Of a stretch of DNA of 31,220 nucleotides, positions 783 to 26,459 are shown one piece after another. Both the position numbers and the translations under genes were made by a program. The stretch comes from a virus (taxonomy: Duplodnaviria > Caudoviricetes). Location of the stretch: IMG/VR virus record IMGVR_UViG_3300023081_000053, positions 1 to 31,220 of that record; one strand, given 5' to 3'. Each line of letters opens with the position of its first letter. The first letter of the stretch is position 1. The notes below the pieces were generated by a model. That model had not been told where the DNA came from. It did not search any database and saw only the letters and a list, made by a program, of their open reading frames with translations.

Positions 783-1208
783 TTGAAGGTAAGTGCTGTT
801 CCAAAGGAAACAGTCAAGTATATATGGAAGGACGTTGAAAAGGTACTGAAGGAAAGTGTCGAAACAGCTATCGGTAAAATGAAAATGATAGATGTTTTAA
901 AGGGGATATTGGAAGACACTTACGTTCTTTGGGTTGTGTTTGAAGAAGACAAGATTGTAGCTGCATTCACAACCAGAATAATAAAGTACCCGCAACGCAA
1001 AAGCATGGCACTTGATTGGGTAGGTGGAAGTCGAATGAAAGAATGGCTGGATATAGGAATGGAAAAGGTTATAGACTTTGCTATTCAGAATGACTGTCAG
1101 CACTTAGAAGGCTATGGAAGAAAGGCTTGGGGTCGGGCTTTGCGAAAGCACAAGTTTTATCCAGAGTACATTGCGTTTCGTATGGAGATAGAAAATGGGC
1201 AAAGGTAG
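783..1208 (+). CDS. GNAT-like phage protein of the virion module
   Basis: 141 aa, TTG start directly after the upstream TAA. W-GG..M.EW and C..LEG.GRKAW.R pattern typical of degenerate GNAT-fold proteins found before ejection-protein genes. Confidence 0.55.
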   Translation: MKVSAVPKETVKYIWKDVEKVLKESVETAIGKMKMIDVLKGILEDTYVLWVVFEEDKIVAAFTTRIIKYPQRKSMALDWVGGSRMKEWLDIGMEKVIDFAIQNDCQHLEGYGRKAWGRALRKHKFYPEYIAFRMEIENGQR

Positions 1209-3234
1209 TTCGCCGCAACAACAGGTAGTTTCGACAGGTCTGCCTGAGTATGTTGACCCATATTTTAAGCGACTTCTCAAAGGCGCTGAAGAAGCGACCA
1301 TGCCATATTACCCAGACGACCCTGACAAGTATGGTGACTTAGCTGGTAAGTCCACTTATGTGCCATACGAAGGTGATCGCTTAACGTCATCCGCAGATTA
1401 TGGTGATATTACTCAGTCGCGGGATATGATCAGAAACATAGCCACAAGTCCGCTGGCAGGGATGACAACGGCTGTTGGCACTCAAAATGAAGGTATCGCT
1501 GGGCTTCGTAATCTAGCTTTAAACGCACCCAGCTTTACTGCATCTAATTTTTCTGCGACAGGTGTTAACCCATATAGTGGGTTTCAGGCTGGGTCTGCGG
1601 ATCCCTATAGTGGTTTTGCGGCAAGTCCCGCTACCGCTTTTACAGGCTTTCAAGCTGGCTCTGCGGATCCGTATAATAGATTTGATAGAAGTTCAGTTAC
1701 TGGATATGGCGGGTTTCAAGAAAGACAAGCTGATCCATTCTCTGATTTTGATAGGAGCAGTGTTGAAGCTTATGGTGGATTCCAAGCGGGTCAGGCCGAT
1801 CCGTTTAGTGATTTCACCCAAGCAGAATTTTCAAAAGCACAAGGCAAAGAGTTTGATTTTGGACCAGCACGTCAGTTTACGGGCGCTGAAGTGTCAGACT
1901 ATATGGACCCATACATGCAAAATGTTGTGGATGTTCAGAAGCGCGAAGCAATACGTGACTTTGGTAGGGGTCAGGCTGGCAGAGATGCAGCGGCTGTAAC
2001 GGCAGGTGCCTTTGGTGGATCACGTCAGGCTGTTGCTCAAGGAATGGCAGAGCAGAACCTAGATCAAAGATTGGGTGATATACAACAAATTGGAAGTCAG
2101 GCAGCGTTTGACCGTGCAATGCAGATGTTTGAGTCTGATCGTGCGGCACAAATGGACGTTGATCAGCGCCGTGCAGCAGAAGCGGCACGAGTTCAAGGCA
2201 TTGATGTTGGTGAAACAGGAAGAACGCAAACTGGTACAGCGGCTGAGATGGCTCGTACTCAGGCTGGAAGAGCGGCAGAACTTGCTAGGACGCAGGGGAT
2301 TAGTCTTGACGAAGCTGCACGGATTCAAGCAGCGGAAGCTTCAGAGTTGGCTAGAACCCAAGGCGTTGATGTTAGCGAAGCTGCAAGGACACAAGCAGCA
2401 AGAGCAGCGGAGCTTGCCAGAACTCAAGGCATTAGTATTGATGAGGCACGTAGAATACAGGCCGCTGAAGCCGCTGAACTTGCCAGAACGCAAGGTGTTG
2501 ACGTTAGCGAGGCAGCTAGAACGCAAGCTGCAGAAGCTGCCGAACTGGCTCGCACACAAGGTATTAGTTTGGATGAGGCCGCACGAATCCAAGCAGCAAA
2601 CGCCGCAGAACAGGCTAGGGTGCAAGGTCTTGATGCTTCGGAAGCAGGTCGTATCCAATCAGCCCAAGCTGCAGAACTTGCTAGAACCCAAGGTATTAGC
2701 ATTGAAGAAGCCGCTCGCATACAAGCAGCAGAAGCAGCGGAGCTTGCTCGAACACAAGGTATAGATGTTAGCGAAGCAGCCCGTGTGCAGAGCGCAAACG
2801 CAGCAGAGCAAGCAAGGATACAGGCGGCATTAGAAGCTCAGAGATACGGAACCGCTGGACTGTACGGTGATTTAATGGGCGCAGGTCGTGGTCTTCTTGG
2901 GCTTGGCGAACTTGCTCGTGGCACTGACATACAGGGTGCGCAATTACTTGAAACACTTGGTCGGGATATTCGCGGAGAAGATCAGGCTCGCCTAGACCTA
3001 GCGTATCAAGATTTCTTACGTCAACAAGACTATCCAATCAGTCAGTATGAACGCTTCGCTGGCCTTCTAAGTGGTGTACCTACTGGCAATCTGGACAGGA
3101 CAACAACGCAGTATGCTTCTTACAATCCAATCCAACAAGCATTGGGTGCGGGAATTTCTGCGCTTGGATTGTATAGAGGTCTTGGTGGTGGATATGGTGG
3201 TTATGGCGGTTATGGTTACGGAGGTATGCAATGA
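1195..3234 (+). CDS. Internal virion / DNA pilot (ejection) protein with 11-aa repeat arrays
   Basis: 679 aa, Ala/Gln/Gly-rich. MGKG N-terminus, YMDPY..VVD and AGAFGGSRQ motifs, two repeat arrays and a GYGG tail. Confidence 0.7.
   Translation: MGKGSSPQQQVVSTGLPEYVDPYFKRLLKGAEEATMPYYPDDPDKYGDLAGKSTYVPYEGDRLTSSADYGDITQSRDMIRNIATSPLAGMTTAVGTQNEGIAGLRNLALNAPSFTASNFSATGVNPYSGFQAGSADPYSGFAASPATAFTGFQAGSADPYNRFDRSSVTGYGGFQERQADPFSDFDRSSVEAYGGFQAGQADPFSDFTQAEFSKAQGKEFDFGPARQFTGAEVSDYMDPYMQNVVDVQKREAIRDFGRGQAGRDAAAVTAGAFGGSRQAVAQGMAEQNLDQRLGDIQQIGSQAAFDRAMQMFESDRAAQMDVDQRRAAEAARVQGIDVGETGRTQTGTAAEMARTQAGRAAELARTQGISLDEAARIQAAEASELARTQGVDVSEAARTQAARAAELARTQGISIDEARRIQAAEAAELARTQGVDVSEAARTQAAEAAELARTQGISLDEAARIQAANAAEQARVQGLDASEAGRIQSAQAAELARTQGISIEEAARIQAAEAAELARTQGIDVSEAARVQSANAAEQARIQAALEAQRYGTAGLYGDLMGAGRGLLGLGELARGTDIQGAQLLETLGRDIRGEDQARLDLAYQDFLRQQDYPISQYERFAGLLSGVPTGNLDRTTTQYASYNPIQQALGAGISALGLYRGLGGGYGGYGGYGYGGMQ
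1564..1827 (+). repeat. Coding repeat array: 8 x 33 nt (11 aa), ADP(Y/F)SxF-type
   Basis: VNPYSGFQAGS / ADPYSGFAASP / ATAFTGFQAGS / ADPYNRFDRSS / VTGYGGFQERQ / ADPFSDFDRSS / VEAYGGFQAGQ / ADPFSDFTQAE. Confidence 0.85.
2173..2832 (+). repeat. Coding repeat array: 20 x 33 nt (11 aa), xxExARxQxxx
   Basis: Units such as AAELARTQGIS / LDEAARIQAAE / AAELARTQGVD / VSEAARTQAAE, with 22- and 44-aa higher-order periodicity. Confidence 0.95.
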
Positions 3235-5444
3235 ACATTATAGAGCAAACAGAAGCTCTTAAAGACCTTCCTGATCAAAGACTGATGCAAGAGATGCAAG
3301 CCCCTACAGGATTTGCACCTCAGTTTCTTGTGCTTAGTGAGCTTAAACGCCGCAAAAGAATGCGTGATGAGTATCAGCGCCAGCAAGCTGCAAACATGAA
3401 GACAGTTGCAGAAGAAGCCGTAACTGCTGCAGGTGTGCCGCAAGAGGGTATCATGCAGATGTCTCAGGCCATGAACCCAAATAGTTCAATTGCACAAAAC
3501 ACTGGAGCGGACCAGAGACCACAGATGCAACCGACACAGGCACCTCAAATGATGGCTGATGGTGGCGTTGTTCGCATGTTCGATGGTGGTATTTCTGGCG
3601 GCACTATGTCTGCTATTGCAAACCTTAAAGCAAATTATCCTGATGTATACAGGTCGGCAGTTGAGCAGGGCATTGTTGAACAAATGGCAGAGTACATGCA
3701 AAATGTTGCTCAAGATGTGCCGTATGGCCTTGATGCCCTTGAAGATCCACGTAGCTTTGATTTTCTGCAAAGCATGTTTACTGACCCATCAAATCGTGCT
3801 GTAACTGAAAAACAAAAAGAAATAGAAGCAACGCAGCCAGAAAGAGCATTACAGGCAAGAGTCGATTCCAGAACTGCACTAAGTAGATATAGCGACGATG
3901 ATCCTATATTTGGCACGTCTGCATTGGAGCAGCGGGAAAGGCCAGTAACAGGGGAATACACTGCTGCGCTGGATATTCCAGTCACTAGCGTTGAGGGCAA
4001 ATTGCCACTGCCGCCTTCTGATCCATTGGGGTTAGTGTCAGATGGGAAAGATTTTGGAGTTAAAACCCCTTCAGGTAGTGCGTTGCCTGGTTTAATGCCA
4101 CCTGTTGTTGATGATGGTTTCGGCACGGAATCAATTCAAAATATGCAAGAACAAGAAAGACAAGATGATATTTATAAATTCTTAGCAGAGAAGGGGGAAG
4201 ATTTCCGTGGAGATTTCCCTAGTATAGCTATAGCTGATAGGTTAGATGAGGCTAACCTTGAAGGAGATGAAAAGTATAGAAAAAGAATACTGGAAGGAAA
4301 TCTTGCTGCACATACTGGGTTGTACTTTCCAGAAGGCTCTTCTGGTCGAGAGGTTGCTCGTAAAGATTTAAACCTTCGCGCTTTACAGTTCTTACAAGGC
4401 GATCAATTTACACCACCCAGTGAGATATACGGTAATCTTTTACGTGGTGATCCACTCGAAACCGCTAAATATCAAGAAGAACCCCCAGAAGTCATCCAAC
4501 AACTGTCAGATGATATATATAATGCAGATAGAGTAGATCAAGAAGCCAATGCGTTAAGATCTCTTGACCAGCAAGACATGAACGCTCAAAGGAAAAGCGA
4601 CGAATTTTTCCGCATGTTGGAAATCAACAACCCACCTGTAGCTTATGATCGTTCTCCGACTACAGAGTTTATTAATAATTTACTATCTGGTGGAACTGAT
4701 GAAGTTGATAACGAGGTATTTAAGGGACAGGCAATACCAGAAGATCTTCCTGAAGGATTCCAGCTTGGAATGGGAGCGGCATCAGAAGGTGCTTTGTCAT
4801 TCGGAAAGCTAACAGATGACACATCCACCAACCCCGCTGGGAACAAGGTGACTGGTGGTCAGAAGGCAAGCGCAACGTCATCTCTTGGTGGCATAGAAGG
4901 CCGCATAGCTAAGATGCTTGAAGAGAAAGAGAAGAGCGCCCAGAGCGACAAGTGGATGGCTCTTGCTCAAGCGGGTATGGCATTGATGGCATCTGATGCA
5001 CCAACTCTAGGGGGTGCCATAGGAGAAGCTGGTCTTGTTGGTCTTGGTGCATTGAAGAAAGGAAAAGATCAGTACGATAAAGATGTCCTTGATCTTCTGA
5101 CTTTGCAGCAACGCATAGACGCACAGAAAGCAAGGTCTTCTGGTAAAGGGGGTTTGACTGCAAGCAACATGATTAGCCTTATGGACGACTTGAGAAGGTA
5201 CAAGGGTGACATTCAAGATCGCATTGACGCCCTTAACTCTCCAGCCAATATAATGGATCCAGCAGAAAAAGAACGTCAGATAAAGGGCTTGCAGCAAGAG
5301 TTGTTCAGAACTGATATTGAGCTTGGCACATATCGTAACGCTCTACGCGGAACTGGCAGTATTGGTAGCCAGTCATTTGATGTAAGAGGTGGATCGGCGC
5401 AGCAACCTAGTGTAGGATACAGCTTAGGCACAGCTTCACAATAA
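3231..5444 (+). CDS. Internal virion (ejection) protein
   Basis: 737 aa, ATGA overlap with the previous gene and GGAGG upstream. Helical N-terminus, MADGG/MFDGG motifs, and a Gly/Ala hydrophobic segment (MALAQAGMALMA..GGAIGEAG) before a C-terminal coiled coil. Confidence 0.6.
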   Translation: MNIIEQTEALKDLPDQRLMQEMQAPTGFAPQFLVLSELKRRKRMRDEYQRQQAANMKTVAEEAVTAAGVPQEGIMQMSQAMNPNSSIAQNTGADQRPQMQPTQAPQMMADGGVVRMFDGGISGGTMSAIANLKANYPDVYRSAVEQGIVEQMAEYMQNVAQDVPYGLDALEDPRSFDFLQSMFTDPSNRAVTEKQKEIEATQPERALQARVDSRTALSRYSDDDPIFGTSALEQRERPVTGEYTAALDIPVTSVEGKLPLPPSDPLGLVSDGKDFGVKTPSGSALPGLMPPVVDDGFGTESIQNMQEQERQDDIYKFLAEKGEDFRGDFPSIAIADRLDEANLEGDEKYRKRILEGNLAAHTGLYFPEGSSGREVARKDLNLRALQFLQGDQFTPPSEIYGNLLRGDPLETAKYQEEPPEVIQQLSDDIYNADRVDQEANALRSLDQQDMNAQRKSDEFFRMLEINNPPVAYDRSPTTEFINNLLSGGTDEVDNEVFKGQAIPEDLPEGFQLGMGAASEGALSFGKLTDDTSTNPAGNKVTGGQKASATSSLGGIEGRIAKMLEEKEKSAQSDKWMALAQAGMALMASDAPTLGGAIGEAGLVGLGALKKGKDQYDKDVLDLLTLQQRIDAQKARSSGKGGLTASNMISLMDDLRRYKGDIQDRIDALNSPANIMDPAEKERQIKGLQQELFRTDIELGTYRNALRGTGSIGSQSFDVRGGSAQQPSVGYSLGTASQ

Positions 5445-5455
5445 GGAGATGACTC

Positions 5456-8400
5456 TTGGGCGTTATTCAACAAGTAGGTCAATTCTCTGGGAACCCGTAT
5501 TCATTTACCATTGCAGGTGATACACCTACTGAGCAAGAAGTTGCACGTATCTCTCAGATCTTGGATCAGCAAGAGCTACCCTATCGTCAGCAATACGAGA
5601 CACAGTATGGTGGCATTGCCTCTCTTAATCAGCCAATTGAGGAAGAAGAAGAGGGCGGATTTTTTAGTAGGCTAGGAGATCGCTTTGCATATGCCATTGA
5701 TGCACCATTAGAAAACTTTGCCACAACAGCAAGGTTAACTGGGTTTGATAGAACTGCAGACTTTCTAAGCGGCGCTGTTGAAATGCCAGAGAATTATGAA
5801 AGCGCCACAGAAAAGTTTCTAAATGAAGACGGTAGCTTCTACAACTTCTTGTATGCTCCAGAGGCAGTAGCAGAACAAGCGGGTCAATTCGCTGGCTCTC
5901 TTTTGTCTAGGGCAGGTGGTGCGGCAATAGGTGGTGTTGCTACTGGTGGTAGCCCTGCGGGTGTGCTGGCTGGTGCGCTGGCTGGCCCAGCTTTGTTTGA
6001 GGCAGTGCAGCTTGTCGGACCAATCGCTCAACAACGGGCAAGAAACAATGGCAGGGAGATACCCACTAAAGATGACTGGTTGGGTGCAATCTCAAGCGCA
6101 AGCGCATCTGGTGCGCTAAACGCAATTGCTCCTGGTCTGCAAGGCACTTTAAGAAAACTTATTGCTGAAGGCGGCACAGAAACTGTTCAGTCTGTTATTC
6201 AGCAAACAGGCGAGACTGCTTTAACAGACAAGGGCCTTGATATAAATCTAAGGCAAGCTTTTGGTGAGGGTATACTTGCGGCTGGTACTGTTGCTGCAAT
6301 ATCGGGACCCATTGATTACCTTAGCGAAAAGCCAAAGTCTGCATCTGAAATAGAACTTGACGAGGATCTGCAAGAAAGTGCTGTTGAAGACAGTGAGCGT
6401 ACTGGATTTGCATCAGACATTTCACAACAGTTGATGGAGCAAGCAGAGGCTCAGACTGAAGCAGCCATACAATCTGAATCCCCCCAGACAACATCAGAAA
6501 GCCCAGCTACTTTATCTGAGGTTACAACTGATAGTGAGTTTGAAAACAAGACCTACAATAAAGCCCAGTATGATCGTGTTCTTCAGCAAGTTAAATCTGA
6601 CATCGCAAGGGAGAAGGCTCTTAGCGTTACTGGAATTCAACGCGCTATAAAGACAGACCTGCCTGATACTAAGGTTAGTCAGGTTCGTGACATCATGGCA
6701 GAGCTAGAGACACGAGGATACGTTCAGTCTCAACCCACAACGACAAGAGATCTTCGGGCTGTACCTTTGTATCAGCCGACTGAAAACATAGTGCCTCAAC
6801 TAAAGACACCAGATGTGGCGTATCGTCGTCAGATTGATATTGCCAATGAGGCAATAGAAAAAAATAATAAAACTATAGACAGCCTGAAACTTGATCTGGA
6901 TTCTGTAAGAGAGTTTGGTCGTGACCTTCAAGGAAAACGTACAACTGAGAACGCAATAAATTATGAAATCACCAGACTTGGGGAAAGGAACAAGCAATAC
7001 AGTAGCGTTGTGAATGAAGCGCAGCAAGGATTGCAGCAGGTTGGAAGCTTGCCCTACGTTCCCAAAGTCACTCCTGATTTAAATAGAGCGCAGAAGATTG
7101 AGCGTAAAGTTGCAGCAGCAAAGGCGCGTAGTGTTGCTGATCAGGTGAAAGAAAAAGTTCAATCGAACAAACCCGTATATACGCCAGCCCTTACGGCTAA
7201 ACAGGAGAAGGTGTTTCAGTCCATTCGAAAGCGCCTTGATGGCTACGGGTTGAAAGATGTTAGGTTGGAAGCGGAGCAGTTAGTAAAGGCTCCAGACGGT
7301 GCGGGTATTGAGGGATCTTACAACCCAACCAATCGCATGATGAGTTTGTCTATGGGTTTGTATGACCCCAATCTTTCGGAAGCAGAATTGTTTAATCGTG
7401 TTGGAGAAGTTCTTGATCACGAAACAACTCACGCCCTGAAAGAGATGAATGTTATTACCCCCGCTGAGTGGAAAACACTCACTGATGCTGCAGCTAAAAT
7501 GCGGTATACAAAGATCAAGAGCGGTGAGAAGCAGCAAAGAAAGTATTCATACCTAGATCGTGCCAAGCGCATGTATGGGGATATGGGCGCAGAAATACAG
7601 GCTGAAGAAGCCGTTGCAGAAATGTTCCGTGATTATAACGCTGGTCGATTGAGCATGAAGGGCAAGCCAGTAAGCTTGTTTAATAAGATTAAAAACTTCT
7701 TCAAAGCTATTATTGGCGGTGCGAAAGCTAATGGCTTTACGGATGTGCAATCCATCTTCGATGATATTGTTGTTGGAAATATTGGGCAGCGCGAACGTGG
7801 CATTGCTGCACAAGAGCAGACAGAACCAACGTCTTCGCGTCAGTCACGACTAGCGGCAACAGAGGAAGAAACAACACCCGAACAAAACATTAGAATGCCA
7901 CTGAATGTTGCGGCACCGAATGATCAAATCCGCGCTGAAATACAGCGCATGACAAATCAGAACCGCCCACTGGTTAAGCAACTGATCAGACGGATTGATG
8001 AAAGGTACGGCACTAAGTCAGGCGACAACGCCAAAGACCTGTCAAAGGTTACGCAGAAAGCTCGTCGCCCATCAATACTGGCTAAGAAACCTTGGCATGA
8101 TGTTTCCCACATCCGTGATAGTTATCGCTTTAAGACAGTGATTGATGACTTCCGTGCAGTCCCTGCAATCTTCAATGAGTTACTTGCTGATGGGATATCT
8201 CTGGTCAAAATAGATACCAACAAGTTGTTTGAGCCAAAGGAATGGGGCTGGCGTATTATTGCTTTTGATTTACGTATGCCGAATGGGCAGCTTGTCGAAT
8301 GGTATCTGCCGCTGAGAGAGCTTGAAGTTGAGAAGAAAGCTCGTGGTCATTTGATCTTTGAGGAATGGCGCAACAAGACACAAGAGGAATTGTCAGCGCA

Positions 8401-11400
8401 GCGTGATGCTTACTTTGCTGCCATCGCTCGTAGTTATAGAAACTATGATGAGGCTTTCCAAGCTGCGCTAGATCGAATGAACACTACACGTCAGGATGCA
8501 GAAGCATCTTGGAGAAGAGCAGAGAGTTCACTGCTTGAGGCTGCGCGGAATGCACGTAGGTCATCTGGTGTTGGGATCTCTTCTGCCGCAACGGCAGAGG
8601 CTGGCATTACAACGCCTTCAGAAGTACGCACTGATGTAGATCCATCAGCCTTGAATATAAGCGCCCGTGAAGAGCCATCTTCTATGAGTGCAAAAGGTTC
8701 TGCCATCTTATCTACCTCCGATGACTATGTTACAGATTTGCCTGTTGAACAGCAAGTTAAGTTCTCAAGGCTGTCTCGCTCCCCTAGTGTATCAGGTTTA
8801 CAAGACTTTATCAGAAATAATCCTGATGGATTTACTATTGATCCTGTCTCCATGGAACCTGCGTCTGGTGGTTTCGTTGTTGCCCCCCTCAAAGAAGCCG
8901 AAATAATTGTCGGAGAGACCTTGCCAGAGGAGGTACTATTAGGTTATATTGAGGATAATAAGGATATTTCGAGGGCTGTCAATAAGCCAGTTTACCTTGG
9001 TGGTTGGTTCGACACAGACTCTCAGCAATATTTCTTAGACAACACTTTGATACTGCCGACTGCAGAAGAGGCGCTGTACATCGCTGAGGCTGCAGATCAA
9101 CTGGCAATCTTTGATCTGAATAACTTTGAGGAGATCAGGACCAATGAAGGAATCAGACAACTCCAAGAGAGTGGTGCTTACAGAGGTGACACCGCAATCG
9201 GATACCAAAGAAACCTTGCAGAGGTTGGTCGCCGCTTTGCGGAAGCAAGGAATAACCGTAACGCCAGCCAAAGAGAACAGCTTACTAGAGGAGTAGAGGG
9301 CTTTAGACAATCACGTCTAACCTTACCCCTCTCTCCTGAGCAACGTGCTGCTAGTGTTCTGGATTATTTAGACCCGAACACTGGACAACCTAAGTTTAAA
9401 AACAAGCAGGGTTCCGAAACCCTTGTAAGCTTTGCCAACAAGCTTCTTGAGCTTCGCGGCACACGTACATATGACATCGTCAACTCAGAGCAAGACCGCG
9501 AAGAGGTCGCTCGCATCATGGCTGCAGAAGCAGAGGCTGCGCTTCTGTCCAGTAGCGATGCGATTGGTTGGTATGATGCCAAGCTGAAGCTGGCAAAACA
9601 AATTCTGTTCCCTGTGTACCCAGAGGTATCACCACTGCGTCCTGATGGCACAGAGAATTCAATGTATGATCCAGCGTCTGAGCATGCATTTGACTATGCA
9701 ACAGCAGTTACCTCAAATGGTTTGTCTGTAATTGACAACTACCTACTGGCATCTCGCCAGTATGACGCATGGAAAAACAACCAAGACGGTAAGTTCCCGC
9801 TCTCAGCTTCTGGGGCGCAAGGCAAGTCCATGATTAAGGCGTGGGAGTTTTGGAATGCTCTTGTGGATCTTGGTTATAACTCTAATCAGATTAACGATCT
9901 GCTTACAACGCAGATGCGTAAGGGTGATCTTGCGGCACTGATGACAGAAGTATTCGGTGTAGATCGTGTCAAAGATTTACCATTTACAATAGATGGAAAA
10001 GAACTTGCCGATGAAATCGTTGGCGTTGCCTATGTGATTGGACCTAAGATTGGAAATGGTTTCTATCAAAACTTACGTGGCAACTTTGATCCTCTAACAA
10101 TGGATCGCTGGTGGATGCGCTTTGTCAACCGTATCACTGGCAACCCAACAGTTAACTATCGTGAAGAACTTGTACAGGAAAACAAAGAAAAGCTTTGGAA
10201 CCTAATATCAAATCCAGATAGCTTGACGGAAATGGACCAAAAGCTTTTGGTGGATACTGTCGAAGCTTTGGGAATCACCACTATAGAGAAAAGTGATATT
10301 GAACTTATTGCCCCAGAAGTACAAAAAGTTTGGGACAAAAACTTCTACAACAAAGCATTCAACGACAAGCTTGATGATCTTGCTGATCAATATAACTTTC
10401 TTGTCACATCAGACGGTGTAATCACTGGGCGTGACGCGGAAAAAGTTAAGAAGATTGCTCAAGATGCACGTCCTAAATCCACAGACTTAGCACTGGCTGC
10501 TAAAAATTTAGCAGGTAAACTAAAGCCTCAGCTTCAGGAAGATCCACGTAATGCCCGTGAGCGTTCAGCCATGAGGGCTGCTGCTAATCGTGCTAGAGAA
10601 ATACTGCGTCAAAGCAACCAGATTGGTGTGGATCTAACCAACGCAGACTTCCAAGCCCTCATGTGGTACGCAGAGAAGCGCATCTTTGAAGCTGGTGGTG
10701 TGCGCAAAGGTCGTGGTGATGACAATGATTATGCAGATGGTGCAATAGCCATCCTTAAAAACAAAGGTGTAAGCGATGACAAAATCGAAGCCACACTCCC
10801 CGATGCAGAACGAGGAAGAATCCGTAGTGTCGAATCTCAACTCGACAGAGATTCTGAAATTGGCAGAGAGATTGATGCGATACAAAGAGGGCCAGAAGAA
10901 GGAAACTTCTTCGCTCCAAGAGAGCTAACACTTCTTGATGGGTCTATGGCCCCACAGGAACAGCTAACAACCGAACAGCTACAGCAAACAGAAGCAGATC
11001 TTGCGGGAGCAGAAGTTGATCCAGAGCTACCACCTCAACGGTTCTCTCGCCTCATCCCTGCTCAGGCACTCATGCCATTACGCGCACCAGTTAACATGGC
11101 TGATGGCTCTCCCAATCCAGTCTATGGGTACTTTAGGGATGACACAACGGGCAAGCTACGTCCTATAGTTTTGCCTAGAGGTTCCCACAAAACATACGAG
11201 AATGGTGTAGAGGTTGGTCAGGGATTGTATCACATACAACAACGCAACCACGATAAGGAACTGGTGGAGAATTCTAAATACAAGCGTGTTGAGAATGCCA
11301 TCTTTGATCTCCTTCGCCGCTGGCAAGATCAAGGGTACGAGGATGGTGATGCGGTTATCTCCTATCCAAGTCAGGGTGTTATCGTTCTTGAGTGGCGCAA

Positions 11401-14400
11401 TAACCTAGCGTTTAAAGCACCACCCATGCGCCTTGTGCTGCAGTCGGGTCGTGATCTACCAAATGCACCTTCTAAAAATGTATTTTATGTAAAGACATTC
11501 TTCCCGATCTTGGAGAAGAAAGCACGGAAGACTGCGCCTGTTCGTCAATCTCGCTTGATGAGCAGACTTCCAGAACAGATAGGCGAAAAGCAATACAATT
11601 TAGAATATGCTAGAACCTCTGACTTCTTGGCAAAGGGTTTGAAATTTTTTGTGCCAGAAGAAAAAGCACAGACTGCAGCGGATGGGATTATTCGCAGGTT
11701 CCAAGACGACATGCTTCCCGTGGGACGTATGATGCAAGAGCTTCAAAAGAAGGACGCTACAATTACAGATGCGTTTGATCCTTATCTGCAAGAAGAATTG
11801 TATCATGGTCGTGTAGGCGCAGAGATCGAAAGCCGTGAGAAGACAATCTACAAAGATGCTGTGGATGCAGTTAAAGGTGTTAACATTTCTCAGGGTAAGA
11901 TCGATCAGCTAAAAGCTATTTCAGACAAGGCGTCAGAGACGGGTGATGGGTTTGTTAAGAAAGCTCTTGCTAGTTACCCAAGCAAAAAACTTGCAGTAGT
12001 TGATGCTGTTCTTTACGCGACACACGCTAAGGAACGTAACGCATTCATCAGAAAAAAAGATCCAGATAACACCTCTGGCTCAGGCATGTCAGACATGGAA
12101 GCTGATTCAATCCTAGCGTGGGTTGCCACGTTGGACGCGCCAAGTGTGGCTGCTCTGCAGAGAGTTCAGCAAGGGGTCAGAAGTATTGTTGCAAATACAA
12201 ACCAGAGCCGTGCTGATTATGGTTTGATACCAGAGGAATTGCGCACTGATACAAACTTTAATTCATACGTGCCTCTGCGTGGCAAGGTGGATATGCTTGA
12301 GGGCGAAATGGACTTTACCCGCCCAGCCAGCGGTGCGCCGTTTGGTGTACGTGGTAGGGAAGATCGTCGTGCGCTAGGTCGTTTTGACTATGCCACAGAT
12401 ATCCTTGCAACTGTGATTAATCAGAACCAGAACTCTGTTGTTCGCGGAGAACGCAACAAGGTTGGTCAGGCATTCATTGAATTGCTACGCGCAAACCCAG
12501 ACAAAACCCGTGGCTTTGGTCGGATCCTAGATCGCATGCCAACAATACGAAGAGAGGATACATCAGGTAAGGTAAGAGAATTTACAGACTTTATGGCGGC
12601 TCAAGACCCACACATTTTTGTTGCTAAAGAAAATGGTAAAGATGTTTATGTTGAGATCAGTGACATACGTCTCGCCAACTCCTTGAAGGGTAGTGATGGA
12701 ACAGGATCTAGCTCACTTGGAGCTATCACTAGATCTTTGGGTAAGCTTAACAGATACCTGTCAAACATTAACACCTCGTACAACCCAGAATTTTTTATCA
12801 CTAACATCGTCCGTGACATCCAGACTGCAGGTATAAACGTGCAGCAGTTTGATGCTGATGGCATGGTGAAGAGTATTGCCAAGGACTACAGAAGCGCATT
12901 TGGTGGCATCAAGAGAGCCATCAGAAATGGTGACAAGGATAGTGAGTGGGCAAAGATATACGCTGACTTCGTCCGTGATGGTGGTCAGAATTCTGCAAAC
13001 CCAATGAACAGTGTTGCCGATCAGATGGCAAACATTAGCAACTTACTGGGCGACATCGCTGAGGATGGTGCGCGTGGCAAGTTCAACAAGATGAAGAACA
13101 GTTTTGCAGGGGAGAGAGTTAAGTCTCTTCTCAAGTTCTTAGAAGACTACAACACTGTGGCTGAAAACGCCGTGCGTGTTGCTGTTTACAAAGGTCTAAA
13201 GGACAAAGGCTTCTCGCCTGAGAGAGCGGCACAAGCTGCACGTAATGTGACTGTAAACTTTGGTAAGGGTGGCGAATACAAGACACTGATGAACTCAATG
13301 TACTTGTTCTATAACGCATCCATCCAAGGTTCATTTGCGCTTTTCAATGCGTTCCTAAGATCACCAAAGGTTCGCAGATTATGGGGTGCTTTGGTTGTTG
13401 CTGGTGTAATGCAAGACCTTCTTAACTCAACATTTTCTGAAGAAGATGATGATGAGATCTTAGTCTACGACAAGATACCCGATTACATTCTTGAGCATAA
13501 CTTGATCCTTCCGACATTTGGTATGGGAACTGATCGTCAATATCTTGCGATACCAATGCCATACGGTTTGAACATGGCAGTCAATGCTGGTCGCGCATTC
13601 AATCGCACATTACGCGGAGAATACTCTGCGTCAGAAGGTGCCAACTCAATCATCATGACTGCGGTGGATGCTCTCAATCCACTGGGCGGCACAGAGAACC
13701 TTATCAACTTTGCAGCGCCAACTGTGTTCGATCCCTTCGTTGAAATCATGCGTAACGAAAACTACGCTGGAGTTCCGATATACAAGCAGCAGTATCCAGG
13801 AGATCAGTCCCCCGATAGCCAGCGTTACTTCAATAGTGTCAGCCCTTCAGCGCGTTGGATTACAAACAACTTAAATGCTCTGACTGGCGGCACCACTGAG
13901 ATGTCTGGTTTCGTTGATTGGAACCCAGAGATCATGGACTACTGGTTTGAATATCTGACAGGTGGTATCGGGCGGTTCGTCCAAAGAACAGCCGAATTAC
14001 CTGCTCGTGTGTACACCGATGGCTTCAACGAAGACTTGGTCCGCGAGATACCTTTTGTTCGTAAGGCAATCGGCACTGTGTCAGAGCGTGAAAACATTGG
14101 CATGTTTGTGGAGAAGCGTGATCGTATCTTGAACGTAGGTCAGGAGATCAAGGCGGCACAAGAAGCAGGTGACCGTGAAAGGTTTATGAGGGCAAGAGAA
14201 AAGTATTCTGAAGAGATTGCTCTTCTGCCTCGCATCAAAGCAATCAACAATGCCATCAAAAAAATATCACGGCAGCAGAACGCTATCCGTGATAATGTAA
14301 ACCTTCCTGACAGTCAGCGTCAGTTAATTCTTGATAGGTTGGATGAGCAAAAGCAGATGCTATACGCTCGTGGCAATATGATCATGAAGGACTATCGATA

Positions 14401-14401
14401 A
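5456..14401 (+). CDS. Large polyvalent protein: ejection-protein-like N-terminus, metallopeptidase, RelA/SpoT-like, SAM-lyase-like, HhH glycosylase-like, BECR RNase-like and LPD38-like C-terminal domains
   Basis: 2981 aa, TTG start with AGGAG (5444-5448) 7 nt upstream. Motifs HETTH (7418) and EEAVAE (7604); D..R/PK..GWR/VEW/GH..FEEWR; GGW..D..DQLAIFDL; GPKIG..NL..TMDRW..QALMW; GLYHI...NH; C-terminal NFGKGG..LFYNASIQG..IPMPYG. Confidence 0.8.
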   Translation: MGVIQQVGQFSGNPYSFTIAGDTPTEQEVARISQILDQQELPYRQQYETQYGGIASLNQPIEEEEEGGFFSRLGDRFAYAIDAPLENFATTARLTGFDRTADFLSGAVEMPENYESATEKFLNEDGSFYNFLYAPEAVAEQAGQFAGSLLSRAGGAAIGGVATGGSPAGVLAGALAGPALFEAVQLVGPIAQQRARNNGREIPTKDDWLGAISSASASGALNAIAPGLQGTLRKLIAEGGTETVQSVIQQTGETALTDKGLDINLRQAFGEGILAAGTVAAISGPIDYLSEKPKSASEIELDEDLQESAVEDSERTGFASDISQQLMEQAEAQTEAAIQSESPQTTSESPATLSEVTTDSEFENKTYNKAQYDRVLQQVKSDIAREKALSVTGIQRAIKTDLPDTKVSQVRDIMAELETRGYVQSQPTTTRDLRAVPLYQPTENIVPQLKTPDVAYRRQIDIANEAIEKNNKTIDSLKLDLDSVREFGRDLQGKRTTENAINYEITRLGERNKQYSSVVNEAQQGLQQVGSLPYVPKVTPDLNRAQKIERKVAAAKARSVADQVKEKVQSNKPVYTPALTAKQEKVFQSIRKRLDGYGLKDVRLEAEQLVKAPDGAGIEGSYNPTNRMMSLSMGLYDPNLSEAELFNRVGEVLDHETTHALKEMNVITPAEWKTLTDAAAKMRYTKIKSGEKQQRKYSYLDRAKRMYGDMGAEIQAEEAVAEMFRDYNAGRLSMKGKPVSLFNKIKNFFKAIIGGAKANGFTDVQSIFDDIVVGNIGQRERGIAAQEQTEPTSSRQSRLAATEEETTPEQNIRMPLNVAAPNDQIRAEIQRMTNQNRPLVKQLIRRIDERYGTKSGDNAKDLSKVTQKARRPSILAKKPWHDVSHIRDSYRFKTVIDDFRAVPAIFNELLADGISLVKIDTNKLFEPKEWGWRIIAFDLRMPNGQLVEWYLPLRELEVEKKARGHLIFEEWRNKTQEELSAQRDAYFAAIARSYRNYDEAFQAALDRMNTTRQDAEASWRRAESSLLEAARNARRSSGVGISSAATAEAGITTPSEVRTDVDPSALNISAREEPSSMSAKGSAILSTSDDYVTDLPVEQQVKFSRLSRSPSVSGLQDFIRNNPDGFTIDPVSMEPASGGFVVAPLKEAEIIVGETLPEEVLLGYIEDNKDISRAVNKPVYLGGWFDTDSQQYFLDNTLILPTAEEALYIAEAADQLAIFDLNNFEEIRTNEGIRQLQESGAYRGDTAIGYQRNLAEVGRRFAEARNNRNASQREQLTRGVEGFRQSRLTLPLSPEQRAASVLDYLDPNTGQPKFKNKQGSETLVSFANKLLELRGTRTYDIVNSEQDREEVARIMAAEAEAALLSSSDAIGWYDAKLKLAKQILFPVYPEVSPLRPDGTENSMYDPASEHAFDYATAVTSNGLSVIDNYLLASRQYDAWKNNQDGKFPLSASGAQGKSMIKAWEFWNALVDLGYNSNQINDLLTTQMRKGDLAALMTEVFGVDRVKDLPFTIDGKELADEIVGVAYVIGPKIGNGFYQNLRGNFDPLTMDRWWMRFVNRITGNPTVNYREELVQENKEKLWNLISNPDSLTEMDQKLLVDTVEALGITTIEKSDIELIAPEVQKVWDKNFYNKAFNDKLDDLADQYNFLVTSDGVITGRDAEKVKKIAQDARPKSTDLALAAKNLAGKLKPQLQEDPRNARERSAMRAAANRAREILRQSNQIGVDLTNADFQALMWYAEKRIFEAGGVRKGRGDDNDYADGAIAILKNKGVSDDKIEATLPDAERGRIRSVESQLDRDSEIGREIDAIQRGPEEGNFFAPRELTLLDGSMAPQEQLTTEQLQQTEADLAGAEVDPELPPQRFSRLIPAQALMPLRAPVNMADGSPNPVYGYFRDDTTGKLRPIVLPRGSHKTYENGVEVGQGLYHIQQRNHDKELVENSKYKRVENAIFDLLRRWQDQGYEDGDAVISYPSQGVIVLEWRNNLAFKAPPMRLVLQSGRDLPNAPSKNVFYVKTFFPILEKKARKTAPVRQSRLMSRLPEQIGEKQYNLEYARTSDFLAKGLKFFVPEEKAQTAADGIIRRFQDDMLPVGRMMQELQKKDATITDAFDPYLQEELYHGRVGAEIESREKTIYKDAVDAVKGVNISQGKIDQLKAISDKASETGDGFVKKALASYPSKKLAVVDAVLYATHAKERNAFIRKKDPDNTSGSGMSDMEADSILAWVATLDAPSVAALQRVQQGVRSIVANTNQSRADYGLIPEELRTDTNFNSYVPLRGKVDMLEGEMDFTRPASGAPFGVRGREDRRALGRFDYATDILATVINQNQNSVVRGERNKVGQAFIELLRANPDKTRGFGRILDRMPTIRREDTSGKVREFTDFMAAQDPHIFVAKENGKDVYVEISDIRLANSLKGSDGTGSSSLGAITRSLGKLNRYLSNINTSYNPEFFITNIVRDIQTAGINVQQFDADGMVKSIAKDYRSAFGGIKRAIRNGDKDSEWAKIYADFVRDGGQNSANPMNSVADQMANISNLLGDIAEDGARGKFNKMKNSFAGERVKSLLKFLEDYNTVAENAVRVAVYKGLKDKGFSPERAAQAARNVTVNFGKGGEYKTLMNSMYLFYNASIQGSFALFNAFLRSPKVRRLWGALVVAGVMQDLLNSTFSEEDDDEILVYDKIPDYILEHNLILPTFGMGTDRQYLAIPMPYGLNMAVNAGRAFNRTLRGEYSASEGANSIIMTAVDALNPLGGTENLINFAAPTVFDPFVEIMRNENYAGVPIYKQQYPGDQSPDSQRYFNSVSPSARWITNNLNALTGGTTEMSGFVDWNPEIMDYWFEYLTGGIGRFVQRTAELPARVYTDGFNEDLVREIPFVRKAIGTVSERENIGMFVEKRDRILNVGQEIKAAQEAGDRERFMRAREKYSEEIALLPRIKAINNAIKKISRQQNAIRDNVNLPDSQRQLILDRLDEQKQMLYARGNMIMKDYR
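8491..8706 (-). CDS. Nested antisense 71-aa gene, candidate antitoxin/immunity protein for the RelA/SpoT-like domain
   Basis: ATG at 8706, GGAGGT at 8719-8714 (7-nt spacing), promoter-like TTGCTG-N17-TAACAT upstream. The product looks natural while the overlapping + strand segment is Ser-rich and linker-like. Confidence 0.65.
   Translation of the reverse strand: MAEPFALIEDGSSRALIFKADGSTSVRTSEGVVMPASAVAAEEIPTPDDLRAFRAASSSELSALLQDASAS
8714..8755 (-). promoter_or_regulatory. Sigma70-like promoter and RBS for the nested antisense gene
   Basis: -35 TTGCTG (8755-8750), 17-nt spacer, -10 TAACAT (8732-8727), SD GGAGGT (8719-8714). Confidence 0.55.
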
Positions 14402-23961: not shown

Positions 23962-25089
23962 TTATGCTTGGATGTAAGTTGTTTCCCCCCAAGGTGCGGG
24001 GCTTGCTTGATCCCAAGACGAAACCCAAAGCACTGGGTAGTCAGGTTTGTCTGGGAAGTCATGGATGCAAAGGTCAGTGAAGACTACTAGGTTGTCTACC
24101 TCAATGCCTTTGTCTTCCACATATTGGAAGGCGGGAGACACCATTGTGCCGCCACGCCCACCCAATTCGATGGTGTCTATCTCTTCACCCTGTTCGTATC
24201 TGCGAACGGTCTGAACCCTTGCATCAAAGGTGATGACCGTGATCGATTTGGGTTTGAGATCTTGGCTGATCGCGTTCATCTCTCCAAGGAAACTGGGAAG
24301 CTCACGGCTAGATGAAACGGATCCGCTGCTATCGATCAGCGCAACAAGATGACCAGCGCCCAGCTTCTCAATGGATGGGGCAACAATGCCGCTCATGTGA
24401 TACATTTTGCGCTGAGGTTTGCGCATGCTGTAGTCATCTGGCTGATCACCACCGACAAACCTGCGCATCTTATCGCGCCAGTCTACTTGGCTGCGCTTCA
24501 TGCGCTCAATCATTTCTTTGATTGCAGTGGGCAGATTGCCAACAGCCTTTGCGCCAGTCGCAGCCATCATGATCTTGCTATCCACGTCAGCTTCCATCTG
24601 CTTGGCCTCAGCCTGAGAGACAGGGTTGCCCATGTCGTTAGTCGCGTCCACAACCTGACCGACAGATGCTGCCTGACCAAAGCGTTCCTTGGCATCCTCT
24701 GGCAGTCTGTCAAAGATCGCCTCAGCCATAAGACCCTTATACTGTTCGTCGTACAGGCCACCTTTCGGCAAGATAAATCCAGCCTCAATGAGGATTTCAT
24801 TGATCGCAAAGTCACATGCGATGTTCCAGAGTTCTGGATCACGATCTCCACGGCGAAGGTTGTGCTTCATCGTAACATGCATCACCTCATGAGCCATGAC
24901 GCCCACGGTTTCTTCTTGATCCATGCCATCAACAAAATCTGGTGACCACAAGATAGACTTGCCATCCGTACACATGGTCGGGATGGTCGTGTCTGGTGCG
25001 ACACGCAGGGATAGCGCAAGCGACCCGAAGAACGGGTGCTTCACTACAAGGCGCGTAACTGCACGGGATACTTTCATTTGTGCGTCCAT
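23962..25089 (-). CDS. Metallopeptidase-VWA protein (DUF2201-like), MoxR partner
   Basis: TMCTDG, HEVMH, WNIACD..IN, MIDAS DSSGS, GRGGT and FTD motifs. Likely ATG at 25089. Confidence 0.88.
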   Translation of the reverse strand: MDAQMKVSRAVTRLVVKHPFFGSLALSLRVAPDTTIPTMCTDGKSILWSPDFVDGMDQEETVGVMAHEVMHVTMKHNLRRGDRDPELWNIACDFAINEILIEAGFILPKGGLYDEQYKGLMAEAIFDRLPEDAKERFGQAASVGQVVDATNDMGNPVSQAEAKQMEADVDSKIMMAATGAKAVGNLPTAIKEMIERMKRSQVDWRDKMRRFVGGDQPDDYSMRKPQRKMYHMSGIVAPSIEKLGAGHLVALIDSSGSVSSSRELPSFLGEMNAISQDLKPKSITVITFDARVQTVRRYEQGEEIDTIELGGRGGTMVSPAFQYVEDKGIEVDNLVVFTDLCIHDFPDKPDYPVLWVSSWDQASPAPWGETTYIQA

Positions 25090-25203
25090 ACCACACTCCA
25101 CTTTCTTTTTTTGGGTAGCAAACGTACCCAAGGTTTTAGTTCTATTGAACTTTTTTGCTTGGGATAGTTGAAGGCCATCAACTATCCGCGTAAGCTGCTG
25201 ATT

Positions 25204-26223
25204 TTAAAGGACCAGTTTTGATCCCGTTTGCATGATCCAATCGCGGATCGCTTGAGACTGCTTGAGATCTTTGTTGCGGCTCATCGCATCTTTAATCACA
25301 AAAGCAGAGAACTCTTGTTGCGGCAAACGATTGAGGTACTTGATCACATTGCCCACGTTCTTTTCGTTCACGCGGGATGCAACGGCTGCGCAGATCGCGT
25401 AAAGAACAGCGGGGTCAGACGGTACGTCAGCCGCCATTGGTTGGGCGATAAGCTCATCAATGTCTGGCACACTGCTATACATCTTGAGAAAGCCCGTGAA
25501 GTCGGCAGTCGCAGCACGACCAACCTGACCTGCAATGGCCTCAAGTTGATTGAGCGGGTCAAGACCCCATGACATGATCGTTCCAACGCGTTCCCATGAG
25601 CGGGGCGATGGGCATGCATCCGCATCACGATCAAACTTGTGCAAGAACTCAGGACGAAAGCGCAAGAAAGCGCAGACGCGCTCGTCAATACGCTTGCTGT
25701 AGTAATAAGCAATCGTGTCCTCAAGATCCGCTTCGATCTCCAAGAACATCAGTCTGTCCTTGAGATGGGATGGCATGTTGTTGGTTCCAGCACGATCAGA
25801 CATGCGGTTACCTGCGGCAACAAGCACACACTCATCAGGCAGATAATGTGGCCCAATGCGCCGCTCGTTGAACAGTTGTGCGGCAATGTTCATGTTCGCA
25901 GTCGGAGCTTGTGGAAGCTCGTCAACAAACAAAATACATGGACCTTCTGTCGGCATCCAGTCAGGCCGCATACGCACCATCGTATCGCCATCCTTGGCTG
26001 GAACAGGCCACCCGCCAAGCTCACCCGCATCGTACTGGGCGAGCGACAGAATATGGCAGGGAATTTTTCGACGGGCTGCAATGTCTTTCACGGCAGTTGT
26101 CTTACCGATACCCGCACCAGATACCCAGTACGGCACAACGTACTGAGCATCGCGTCCATTTTTCAAACTGAGTGCAAAGTCAATTGCCGCCTCAGTAATC
26201 GCAGTTGCTTGTGATAGTTTCAT
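25204..26223 (-). CDS. MoxR-like AAA+ ATPase
   Basis: Walker A GAGIGKT, Walker B LFVDE, AAGNR..D and PSPRSW motifs. Confidence 0.9.
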   Translation of the reverse strand: MKLSQATAITEAAIDFALSLKNGRDAQYVVPYWVSGAGIGKTTAVKDIAARRKIPCHILSLAQYDAGELGGWPVPAKDGDTMVRMRPDWMPTEGPCILFVDELPQAPTANMNIAAQLFNERRIGPHYLPDECVLVAAGNRMSDRAGTNNMPSHLKDRLMFLEIEADLEDTIAYYYSKRIDERVCAFLRFRPEFLHKFDRDADACPSPRSWERVGTIMSWGLDPLNQLEAIAGQVGRAATADFTGFLKMYSSVPDIDELIAQPMAADVPSDPAVLYAICAAVASRVNEKNVGNVIKYLNRLPQQEFSAFVIKDAMSRNKDLKQSQAIRDWIMQTGSKLVL

Positions 26224-26225
26224 GA

Positions 26226-26459
26226 TCAATCTCCACTCTCTCTTTGTTCGATCACAGATTTAAGATTTTCGATACGCACTGATGCGTTTTCGATTAGCAC
26301 TTTCTCAGAGCGCAGATAGTGCCTCTGATATCTTCTGACTGCAGCCTCGTATTGCTCACGCGCTGCAGCCAGCTTGTCCTTTAGCTCGTCGATGGTATCG
26401 TCTTCGTAAAGGCTGGCGATACGCTGGCGGTATCGCTCAATGTAGTCATCCACTGACAA
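26226..26459 (-). CDS. Hypothetical coiled-coil protein
   Basis: 77 aa, helical, packed in the operon. Confidence 0.65.
   Translation of the reverse strand: MSVDDYIERYRQRIASLYEDDTIDELKDKLAAAREQYEAAVRRYQRHYLRSEKVLIENASVRIENLKSVIEQRESGD

Follow-up and report, generated by a model that had tools for sequence, protein, structure and literature searches.

Basic-X-Ser motifs border exchangeable cargo modules in a giant phage polyvalent protein and are likely cut sites of its own predicted zinc peptidase

The virus record IMGVR_UViG_3300023081_000053 (Duplodnaviria; Caudoviricetes), a stretch of 31,220 bases that we refer to as the window and to which all unprefixed coordinates refer, encodes a giant protein in which a metallopeptidase-like domain is followed by four cargo modules and a conserved C-terminal region, with short motifs sharing a basic-X-Ser core at the joints. 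Here we describe these junction motifs, their behavior in related phages and their probable role as cut sites. The features of the protein are as follows, with residues numbered in amino acids (aa).

5456..14401, plus strand: giant LPD38-type polyvalent protein, 2,981 aa (open reading frame, ORF; Pfam LPD38 E 1e-38), likely a virion ejection protein
5456..7180, plus strand: N-terminal region, aa 1-575, Gly/Ala-rich, with two hydrophobic segments of moderate strength
7181..7837, plus strand: zincin-like metallopeptidase domain, aa 576-794, with HETTH at 7418-7432 and EE at 7604-7609 (phrog_10691 E 9e-6)
7838..7852, plus strand: junction motif 1, RQSRL, aa 795-799, in a segment with a predicted local distance difference test score (pLDDT) below 50; left edge of the RelA/Zeta swap
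7853..8758, plus strand: cargo 1, predicted RelA/SpoT small-alarmone-synthetase fold, core aa 818-1029 (Foldseek E 2.8e-5; VIA Z 14.9)
8759..8773, plus strand: junction motif 2, KFSRL, aa 1102-1106, with Ser in 94% and Arg in 89% of 18 rows and lower values in the flanks; right edge of the swap
8774..9304, plus strand: cargo 2, unnamed domain (NPDGF...GGWFD...QLAIFD) that also exists as small stand-alone genes
9305..9319, plus strand: junction motif 3, RQSRL, aa 1284-1288, where extra cassettes are inserted in the relatives P0013, P0022, P0025 and P0027
9320..11038, plus strand: cargo 3, predicted helix-hairpin-helix (HhH) glycosylase-superfamily fold with invariant K1531 and D1550 (VIA Z 9.1)
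11039..11053, plus strand: junction motif 4, RFSRL, aa 1862-1866, in coil, block pLDDT about 70
11054..11542, plus strand: cargo 4, BECR-fold predicted RNase (PBECR-like) with H1926 and T2014 (VIA Z 6.6)
11543..11569, plus strand: junction motif 5, doubled, RQSRL-MSRL, aa 2030-2038, pLDDT below 50; the doubled Ser spacing recurs in relatives
11570..14398, plus strand: conserved C-terminal region, aa 2039-2981, with LPD38 at 13466-14056 (Pfam, PHROGs and C-terminal homology)

LPD38 was the sole Pfam match in the giant protein (PF18857, aa 2671-2867, 133.6 bits against a cut-off of 27), and an NCBIfam scan of the N-terminal region gave no match below E 0.04. The chain unites unrelated biochemistries, namely RelA/SpoT, HhH and BECR folds with an HExxH domain, as polyvalent proteins do, and it belongs to the polyvalent class of Iyer et al. 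(2017; PMC5512222), with a junction code that is well supported and apparently undescribed. The C-terminal 943 aa match 356 phage records, and identity in the C-terminal region amounts to 32% (over 89%) with the giant protein of Shiga toxin (Stx) phages and to 26% with JC1 gp69. One such Stx-phage protein, phi24B gp47, was detected in virions by mass spectrometry and proposed to be an ejection protein (bioRxiv 10.64898/2026.04.10.717836), and JC1 gp69, a DarB-like protein of a Bcep22-like phage, was found to be virion-associated by the same technique (PMC9144972). By analogy with these homologs, we infer that the giant protein is packaged and ejected. In a complete relative its gene closes the structural gene block. 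An upstream gene has a weak DNA-ejection PHROG match (E 1e-5). No cultured phage matched in a DNA-level comparison; HTVC023P, HTVC027P, DSL-LC04 and MinM2/Pag-Yong1 have capsids with 64-73% identity to that of a complete close relative.

A preliminary description of this DNA had listed five copies of [RK][QF]SRL, together with a related FFSRL near the N-terminus, and had proposed xSRL as a cleavage signal. All six motifs translate as described, in the frame of the ORF and from different codons, and motif 1, beginning at aa 795, does come after the HETTH...EEAVAE domain (aa 655-659 and 717-722, respectively). The five in-frame copies (aa 795, 1102, 1284, 1862 and 2030) compare with 0.012 expected, and 20,000 shuffles of the giant protein never contained more than two. 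When any degenerate 5-mer could be chosen, the best real pattern contained SRL in five copies (p 9.4e-13) and was ahead of all 3,596 shuffles, although narrowly, the best shuffle reaching 1.7e-12. Since the real protein beats the shuffles, the repeat is real; the weight of the case is nonetheless positional. FFSRL (aa 69-73) does not belong to the set, as none of the other proteins in a set of 67 full-length, non-redundant members of the family has it, and it is therefore probably a chance occurrence. The last motif had been placed just before an LPD38-like region, and a conserved C-terminal region of 950 aa does follow it, but LPD38 itself starts 640 residues further on.

Across the family the signal is broader than xSRL: basic-X-Ser forms its conserved core, the R and L of SRL being specific to lineages, and the family motif reads [RK]-[YFQL]-S-(R/hydrophobic). 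In a logo of 199 sites, in which the Ser was fixed by the method, R/K occupied position -2 in 77% and Y/F/Q/L position -1 in 95%, followed by R (41%) or a hydrophobic residue. Motif density was 2.47 per 1,000 aa in the cargo region compared to 0.28-0.66 elsewhere, a difference of 4 to 9 times, and the motif count was 181 compared to 45.6 after shuffling, in a test of 68 proteins (of 72 non-redundant, from 152) for which the pattern was picked after the data had been seen. A weight matrix, trained on the same proteins that it scored, placed a site before 10/12, 15/18, 23/30, 41/47 and 53/67 domain starts against a background of 18/1,360 and 46/1,340 windows (1-3%); 41/47 cargo-4 copies were preceded by a motif scoring at least 6. 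Dividing the sequences at the motif yields 226 pieces that fall into 52 clusters and occur in many different orders.

The cargo between the motifs was found to differ among related phages. A Zeta-toxin kinase (Pfam E 2e-19; L012:6281-7225) occupies the place of cargo 1 exactly between motifs 1 and 2 in L012, L018 and P0009/10/12, the exchange beginning right after motif 1 and stopping right before motif 2, with downstream identity resuming at the motif. Judged from these alignments, a kinase and an alarmone-synthetase fold are interchangeable in the first slot. Cargo 1 is missing in L017, L023, P0014-17 and P0019-29 and cargo 2 in P0030, the modules of P0038 follow the order 1-4-x-x-3, and P0099 and P0100 have tandem motifs where a cassette seems to have been lost. 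Breakpoints called by BLAST without knowledge of the motif lay within 8 aa of [RK]xS in 60/108 cases, compared to a random mean of 17.6 and maximum of 30, in 35 proteins of 39 non-redundant (from 65) whose relatives share breakpoints, so that the events are not independent. Together with the density and weight-matrix results, these breakpoints support the earlier suggestion that the motifs are conserved in homologs, lie at domain boundaries and form the borders of swappable cassettes.

In the predicted peptidase domain that precedes motif 1, H655, E656, H659, E717 and E718 were invariant across 40 aligned rows, and the predicted catalytic ligands HExxH...E are intact. A peptidase profile detected the domain in 147/152 proteins, while the remaining five are N-terminally truncated and start mid-protein. 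The domain also contains a motif look-alike, RKYSYLDR (about 7538-7561, aa 695-702), whose R and Y were invariant in the 40 rows and which could be a structural element or an internal pseudo-substrate.

Several comparisons concern what reads the motif. Its subtype was uniform within a protein in 84% of 271 site pairs, compared to 51% after shuffling (maximum 63%), and one cargo, conserved at 74% identity, goes with KRYSRL in one chassis and with RRYSLG in another, the peptidases of the two chassis being 43% identical. Among 56 labelled of 68 proteins, in which kin share labels, four subtype changes were needed on the peptidase tree, five on the C-terminal tree and three on the N-terminal tree, against about 17 when shuffled. 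Proteins of the SR type formed a clade on the peptidase tree (support 92) that was rejected for part of the C-terminus (approximately unbiased test, p-AU 0.006), in a comparison of 21 rows whose groups were chosen after the subtype-change counts had been seen. Hence, the subtype follows the peptidase-bearing N-terminal half and not the cargo or the C-terminus. Moreover, no motif preceded cargo 1 in 5/5 complete HExxH-free proteins (1,083-1,187 aa) or in two proteins with another HExxH downstream, whereas behind the same peptidase family the motif was found in 4/5 and the fifth showed KFAK and KYAL; this control scored 12 distinct distant loci of 31, with chassis type and peptidase confounded. 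In the complete relative G001 the weight matrix matched the giant protein only, among ORFs of 120 aa or more, and the window held three weaker matches outside the junctions, one of them inside the peptidase. These observations indirectly support that the motif is read by the metallopeptidase of the same protein.

We therefore think it probable that this is a phage polyprotein whose basic-X-Ser tags are cut by its own zinc peptidase, freeing the cargo after ejection. Under this interpretation, the giant protein would be packed whole and ejected into the host, with the fixed N- and C-terminal regions serving packaging and the conduit for ejection, and would then be cut into products of about 87, 35, 20, 65, 19 and 106 kDa. 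The cut would most plausibly fall just before Ser, leaving a stable N-terminus, since the bacterial N-end rule treats N-terminal Ser as stable. Once released, the enzymes would have nucleotides, DNA bases and RNA of the host as their targets within the first minutes of infection. As one tag per module would be needed for release, selection would keep a tag at each joint and tune all of them to the peptidase, and modules would consequently be gained and lost as tag-bounded units. Both the cleavage by the peptidase and its timing are inferred; the timing after ejection is a guess, made because free cargo could harm the producing cell, and the cutting may instead take place inside the head. Since the sites are rich in Arg and Lys, routine tryptic proteomics would tend to hide such cuts.

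A number of observations weigh against this interpretation. Subtype changes were as few on the N-terminal tree, so that the reader could be the N-terminal region, which is inseparable from the peptidase. The predicted structure did not form the three-stranded zincin sheet, and no zincin was present among the structural matches. When structure models were compared with motif positions, motifs 1 and 5 fell into disordered segments, but motif 4 lay in an ordered coil, and one BECR alignment already begins 30 residues before this motif; the 727-aa model gives no placement for motifs 2 and 3 because cargo 2 is unfolded in it (pLDDT below 50). Many different residues (F, Y, Q, L, S, A, E, H) occupy the middle position of the motif, a site was scored directly after the peptidase in 33/68 proteins only, and in Ruegeria phage 45A6 the peptidase is accompanied by no evident motif of this kind. 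N4 vRNAP and ArdC also have HExxH domains, yet they are packaged or transferred whole (PMC5512222); purified N4 vRNAP showed no degradation (PMC13434306) and ArdC functioned without the metal-binding Glu (PMC7213743). Finally, our literature search found no demonstrated self-processing by such a peptidase domain.

The same data could reflect a docking or threading tag that is bound and not cut, recognized either by the peptidase fold or the N-terminal region or else by a chaperone, and used for packing the protein into the head or for feeding it through the tail domain by domain. Such a tag explains the conservation at the joints, the uniformity within a protein and the tracking of the N-terminal half equally well. 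It is also in line with related HExxH ejection proteins that stay whole and with the N4 region required for encapsidation (PMC5512222; PMC13434306), and the complete relative encodes a GroES co-chaperonin (L116:5025-5390) between its portal and scaffold-like genes. However, docking leaves the invariant catalytic Glu unexplained, does not account for unrelated enzymes with separate targets remaining tethered between fixed ends, and would have to operate in a phage whose other ejection-region proteins carry no tag. We consider it unlikely, although it is the leading alternative.

Alternatively, the tag could be cut by another protease, whether a host enzyme, an unrecognized phage head protease or a DUF2201 HExxH protein. 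The window does encode a second HExxH protein (23962-25131), next to an AAA ATPase. PF04586 (S78 head protease), the only head-protease family searched for, was found in 0/5 genomes; no separate protease was seen among 20 structural-region proteins of G001. A protease acting in trans is nevertheless improbable, given that the giant protein alone carries the motif, that HExxH-free carriers of cargo 1 lack it and that it varies with the chassis lineage.

The motif might also have no role in the protein and merely reflect, at the peptide level, a DNA microhomology through which cassettes recombine. Crossovers do map to the motif codons, tandem motifs were left in P0099 and P0100, and the core Ser codons of the five window motifs are all TCN. 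The doubled site, however, uses an AGY Ser, some relatives have Ala for Ser, and the five motif 15-mers agree at only 5-11 of 15 bases: third positions vary, as does the family of the Arg codons, while the amino acids are kept. Synonymous variation was likewise observed at the motif sites across relatives. The small amount of shared DNA and this synonymous variation indicate that selection acts on the peptide, even though crossovers use these spots, which makes a pure recombination imprint distinctly improbable. That the motifs are due to chance or are ordinary conserved domain starts is hardly credible and was largely refuted by the breakpoint, density and weight-matrix tests, because, even if a k-mer excess arises easily in a single protein and little margin is left once the free choice of pattern is allowed for, one and the same motif stands before unrelated folds at most domain starts compared to 1-3% in the background, and stand-alone cargo 2 has no motif.

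The cargo modules were characterized mainly by predicted structure. The model of cargo 1 aligned with 8vx3 over 185 residues in VIA (root-mean-square deviation, rmsd, 3.1), while Pfam gave no RelA_SpoT match. Members of the RelA/SpoT family carry the motifs GYR and EIQ; in cargo 1 the active-site motifs are divergent, with WGWR and E-[WYF]-Y conserved. Cargo 1 (48-68% identity) also occurs as the C-terminal domain of HExxH-free proteins of 1,100 aa in another phage type (L140-L143, L146). For cargos 1 and 3, phmmer found nothing among PDB sequences. Cargo 3 aligned with 3n0u (rmsd 4.7, 197 aligned), and most top rows were HhH-fold proteins; K1531 and D1550 were invariant in 26 rows and lie 19 apart, which we take to be the spacing of the catalytic Lys/Asp pair of HhH-GPD enzymes. 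The Atlas offered only DUF7178 for cargo 3, with a 14% share, and Foldseek on the cargo 3-4 model returned nothing at E of 0.001 or below, the folds being resolved by VIA-align. In VIA, cargo 4 aligned with several BECR proteins, among them 7m5f (rmsd 3.6, 116 aligned), BrnT (Z 5.1) and colicin D (Z 4.8), all at middling Z values. H1926 was invariant and T2014 nearly so, a predicted layout that fits the description of PBECR RNases, in which the first helix of the BECR fold supplies a His and a late strand a Thr/Ser (PMC5512222). These folds leave the substrates of the cargos unfixed.

Searches of Pfam, PHROGs, NCBIfam, PDB sequences and the Atlas left cargo 2 without a name, and a likeness to phage S-adenosylmethionine (SAM) lyases was unsupported by a profile search of PDB sequences. 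Among 39 of its 72 loci that were examined, 31 were small stand-alone genes, many of them near-duplicates. These lack the motif, and most have a Met aligning with aa 1105-1111, about 1-7 residues past Ser1104. Cargo 2 is a common stand-alone gene of 110-120 aa on other viral contigs (L068-L111), without a family name.

Further features of the window and its relatives surround this protein. Within the N-terminal region, aa about 60-300 (window 5630-6360) differ in L012, P0007 and P0009 compared to L008, having been exchanged with motif-free edges. A 679-aa protein (1195-3234) contains tandem units of about 22 aa (AELARTQGIS.DEAARIQAA.A) and earlier FQAGSADPY-type units; it has a weak DNA-ejection PHROG match, and its ortholog in a relative is just 498 aa long. 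Neighboring ejection-region proteins (60-782 and 3231-5444) carry a [YM]A[ED]GG[EV] tag (YAEGGE, MADGGV, MAEGGE) that is kept in a relative (L113:18540-19979, L114:155-979 and 2893-4989), and two tag systems, this one and basic-X-Ser, may thus stand side by side in one phage. On the minus strand (23962-26229), an AAA ATPase gene adjoins the gene of a DUF2201 HExxH metallopeptidase-vWA protein, and the annotation of Pag-Yong1 includes an ATPase and vWA pair of similar type.

Motifs of a comparable kind were seen in distant phages. In the giant protein of the Stx phage TL-2011c, YSR marks three borders of the LPD1, peptidase and MuF_C domains, [QM]FS[KQ] occurs in Vibrio phage K250 together with an HExxxH domain, JC1 has [KRS][YF]SV at three places, and cyanophage Pag-Yong1 has ESAR four times between domains; gp52 of HTVC033P is short and has no HExxH. 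Taken alone, an unbiased k-mer ranking singled out no motif in the proteins of the Stx phage, Vibrio phage, JC1, MetMV or Ruegeria phage; in Pag-Yong1, ESAR ranked first although within the shuffle range. Since the distant motifs fail the k-mer test on their own, they are leads that rest on position. It is tempting to speculate, with slightly more doubt than confidence, that LPD38 ejection proteins of many lineages are self-processing with a lineage-specific code, each peptidase reading its own Ser-centered tag (xSRL here, YS-hydrophobic in sister lineages, YSR in Stx phages and ESAR in Pag-Yong1), so that any tagged enzyme could be injected. If true, phages would with this code possess a natural, modular means of delivering proteins into bacteria and releasing them there, comparable to the polyproteins of RNA viruses. 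The motif also gives domain borders for uncharacterized cargo in the 52 piece clusters, which offers a quicker route to new enzymes that act early against the host.

In giant phages such as SPN3US, a separate prohead protease reportedly cuts many head and ejection proteins at a short motif, whereas the motif described here occurs in a single protein, one with a peptidase motif of its own, and the S78 protease was not found in the five genomes. Both phi24B gp47 and JC1 gp69 are virion proteins with a homologous C-terminal region, while their cargo differs from that of the giant protein; the phi24B authors proposed that the peptidase attacks peptidoglycan, and the parts of their report covered do not mention processing of gp47 (bioRxiv 10.64898/2026.04.10.717836). 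N4 vRNAP (PMC13434306) and gp65/gp66 of crAss-like phages (bioRxiv 10.1101/2020.03.07.982082) are likewise very large, ejected and equipped with an HExxH domain, and for the crAss-like enzyme proteolytic activation was raised as a possibility, but each carries a single fixed polymerase cargo, unlike the variable string of cargos here. P1 DdrB is processed before packaging (PMC5512222). Our literature search, which did not extend to most subscription journals or the supplements of Iyer et al. (2017), found no published description of such a junction motif. The closest relatives are the polyvalent proteins defined by Iyer et al. (2017; PMC5512222), whose phage versions include RelA/SpoT, PBECR and LPD38 and for which processing by the metallopeptidase (MPTase) domains was proposed, as the preliminary description had stated. 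They share with the protein described here a giant chain encoded in the virion region, HExxH with a downstream Glu, LPD38, RelA/SpoT and PBECR-type cargo, and mosaicism. The main text of that paper, as distinct from its supplements, contains neither 'linker' nor 'recognition site', and the passages covered name no cleavage or linker motif. In contrast, the joints described here are defined at the level of residues and their subtype tracks the peptidase-bearing half, and given a motif, the sizes expected for the fragments and a catalytic Glu that can be mutated, the self-processing predicted since 2017 becomes testable site by site.

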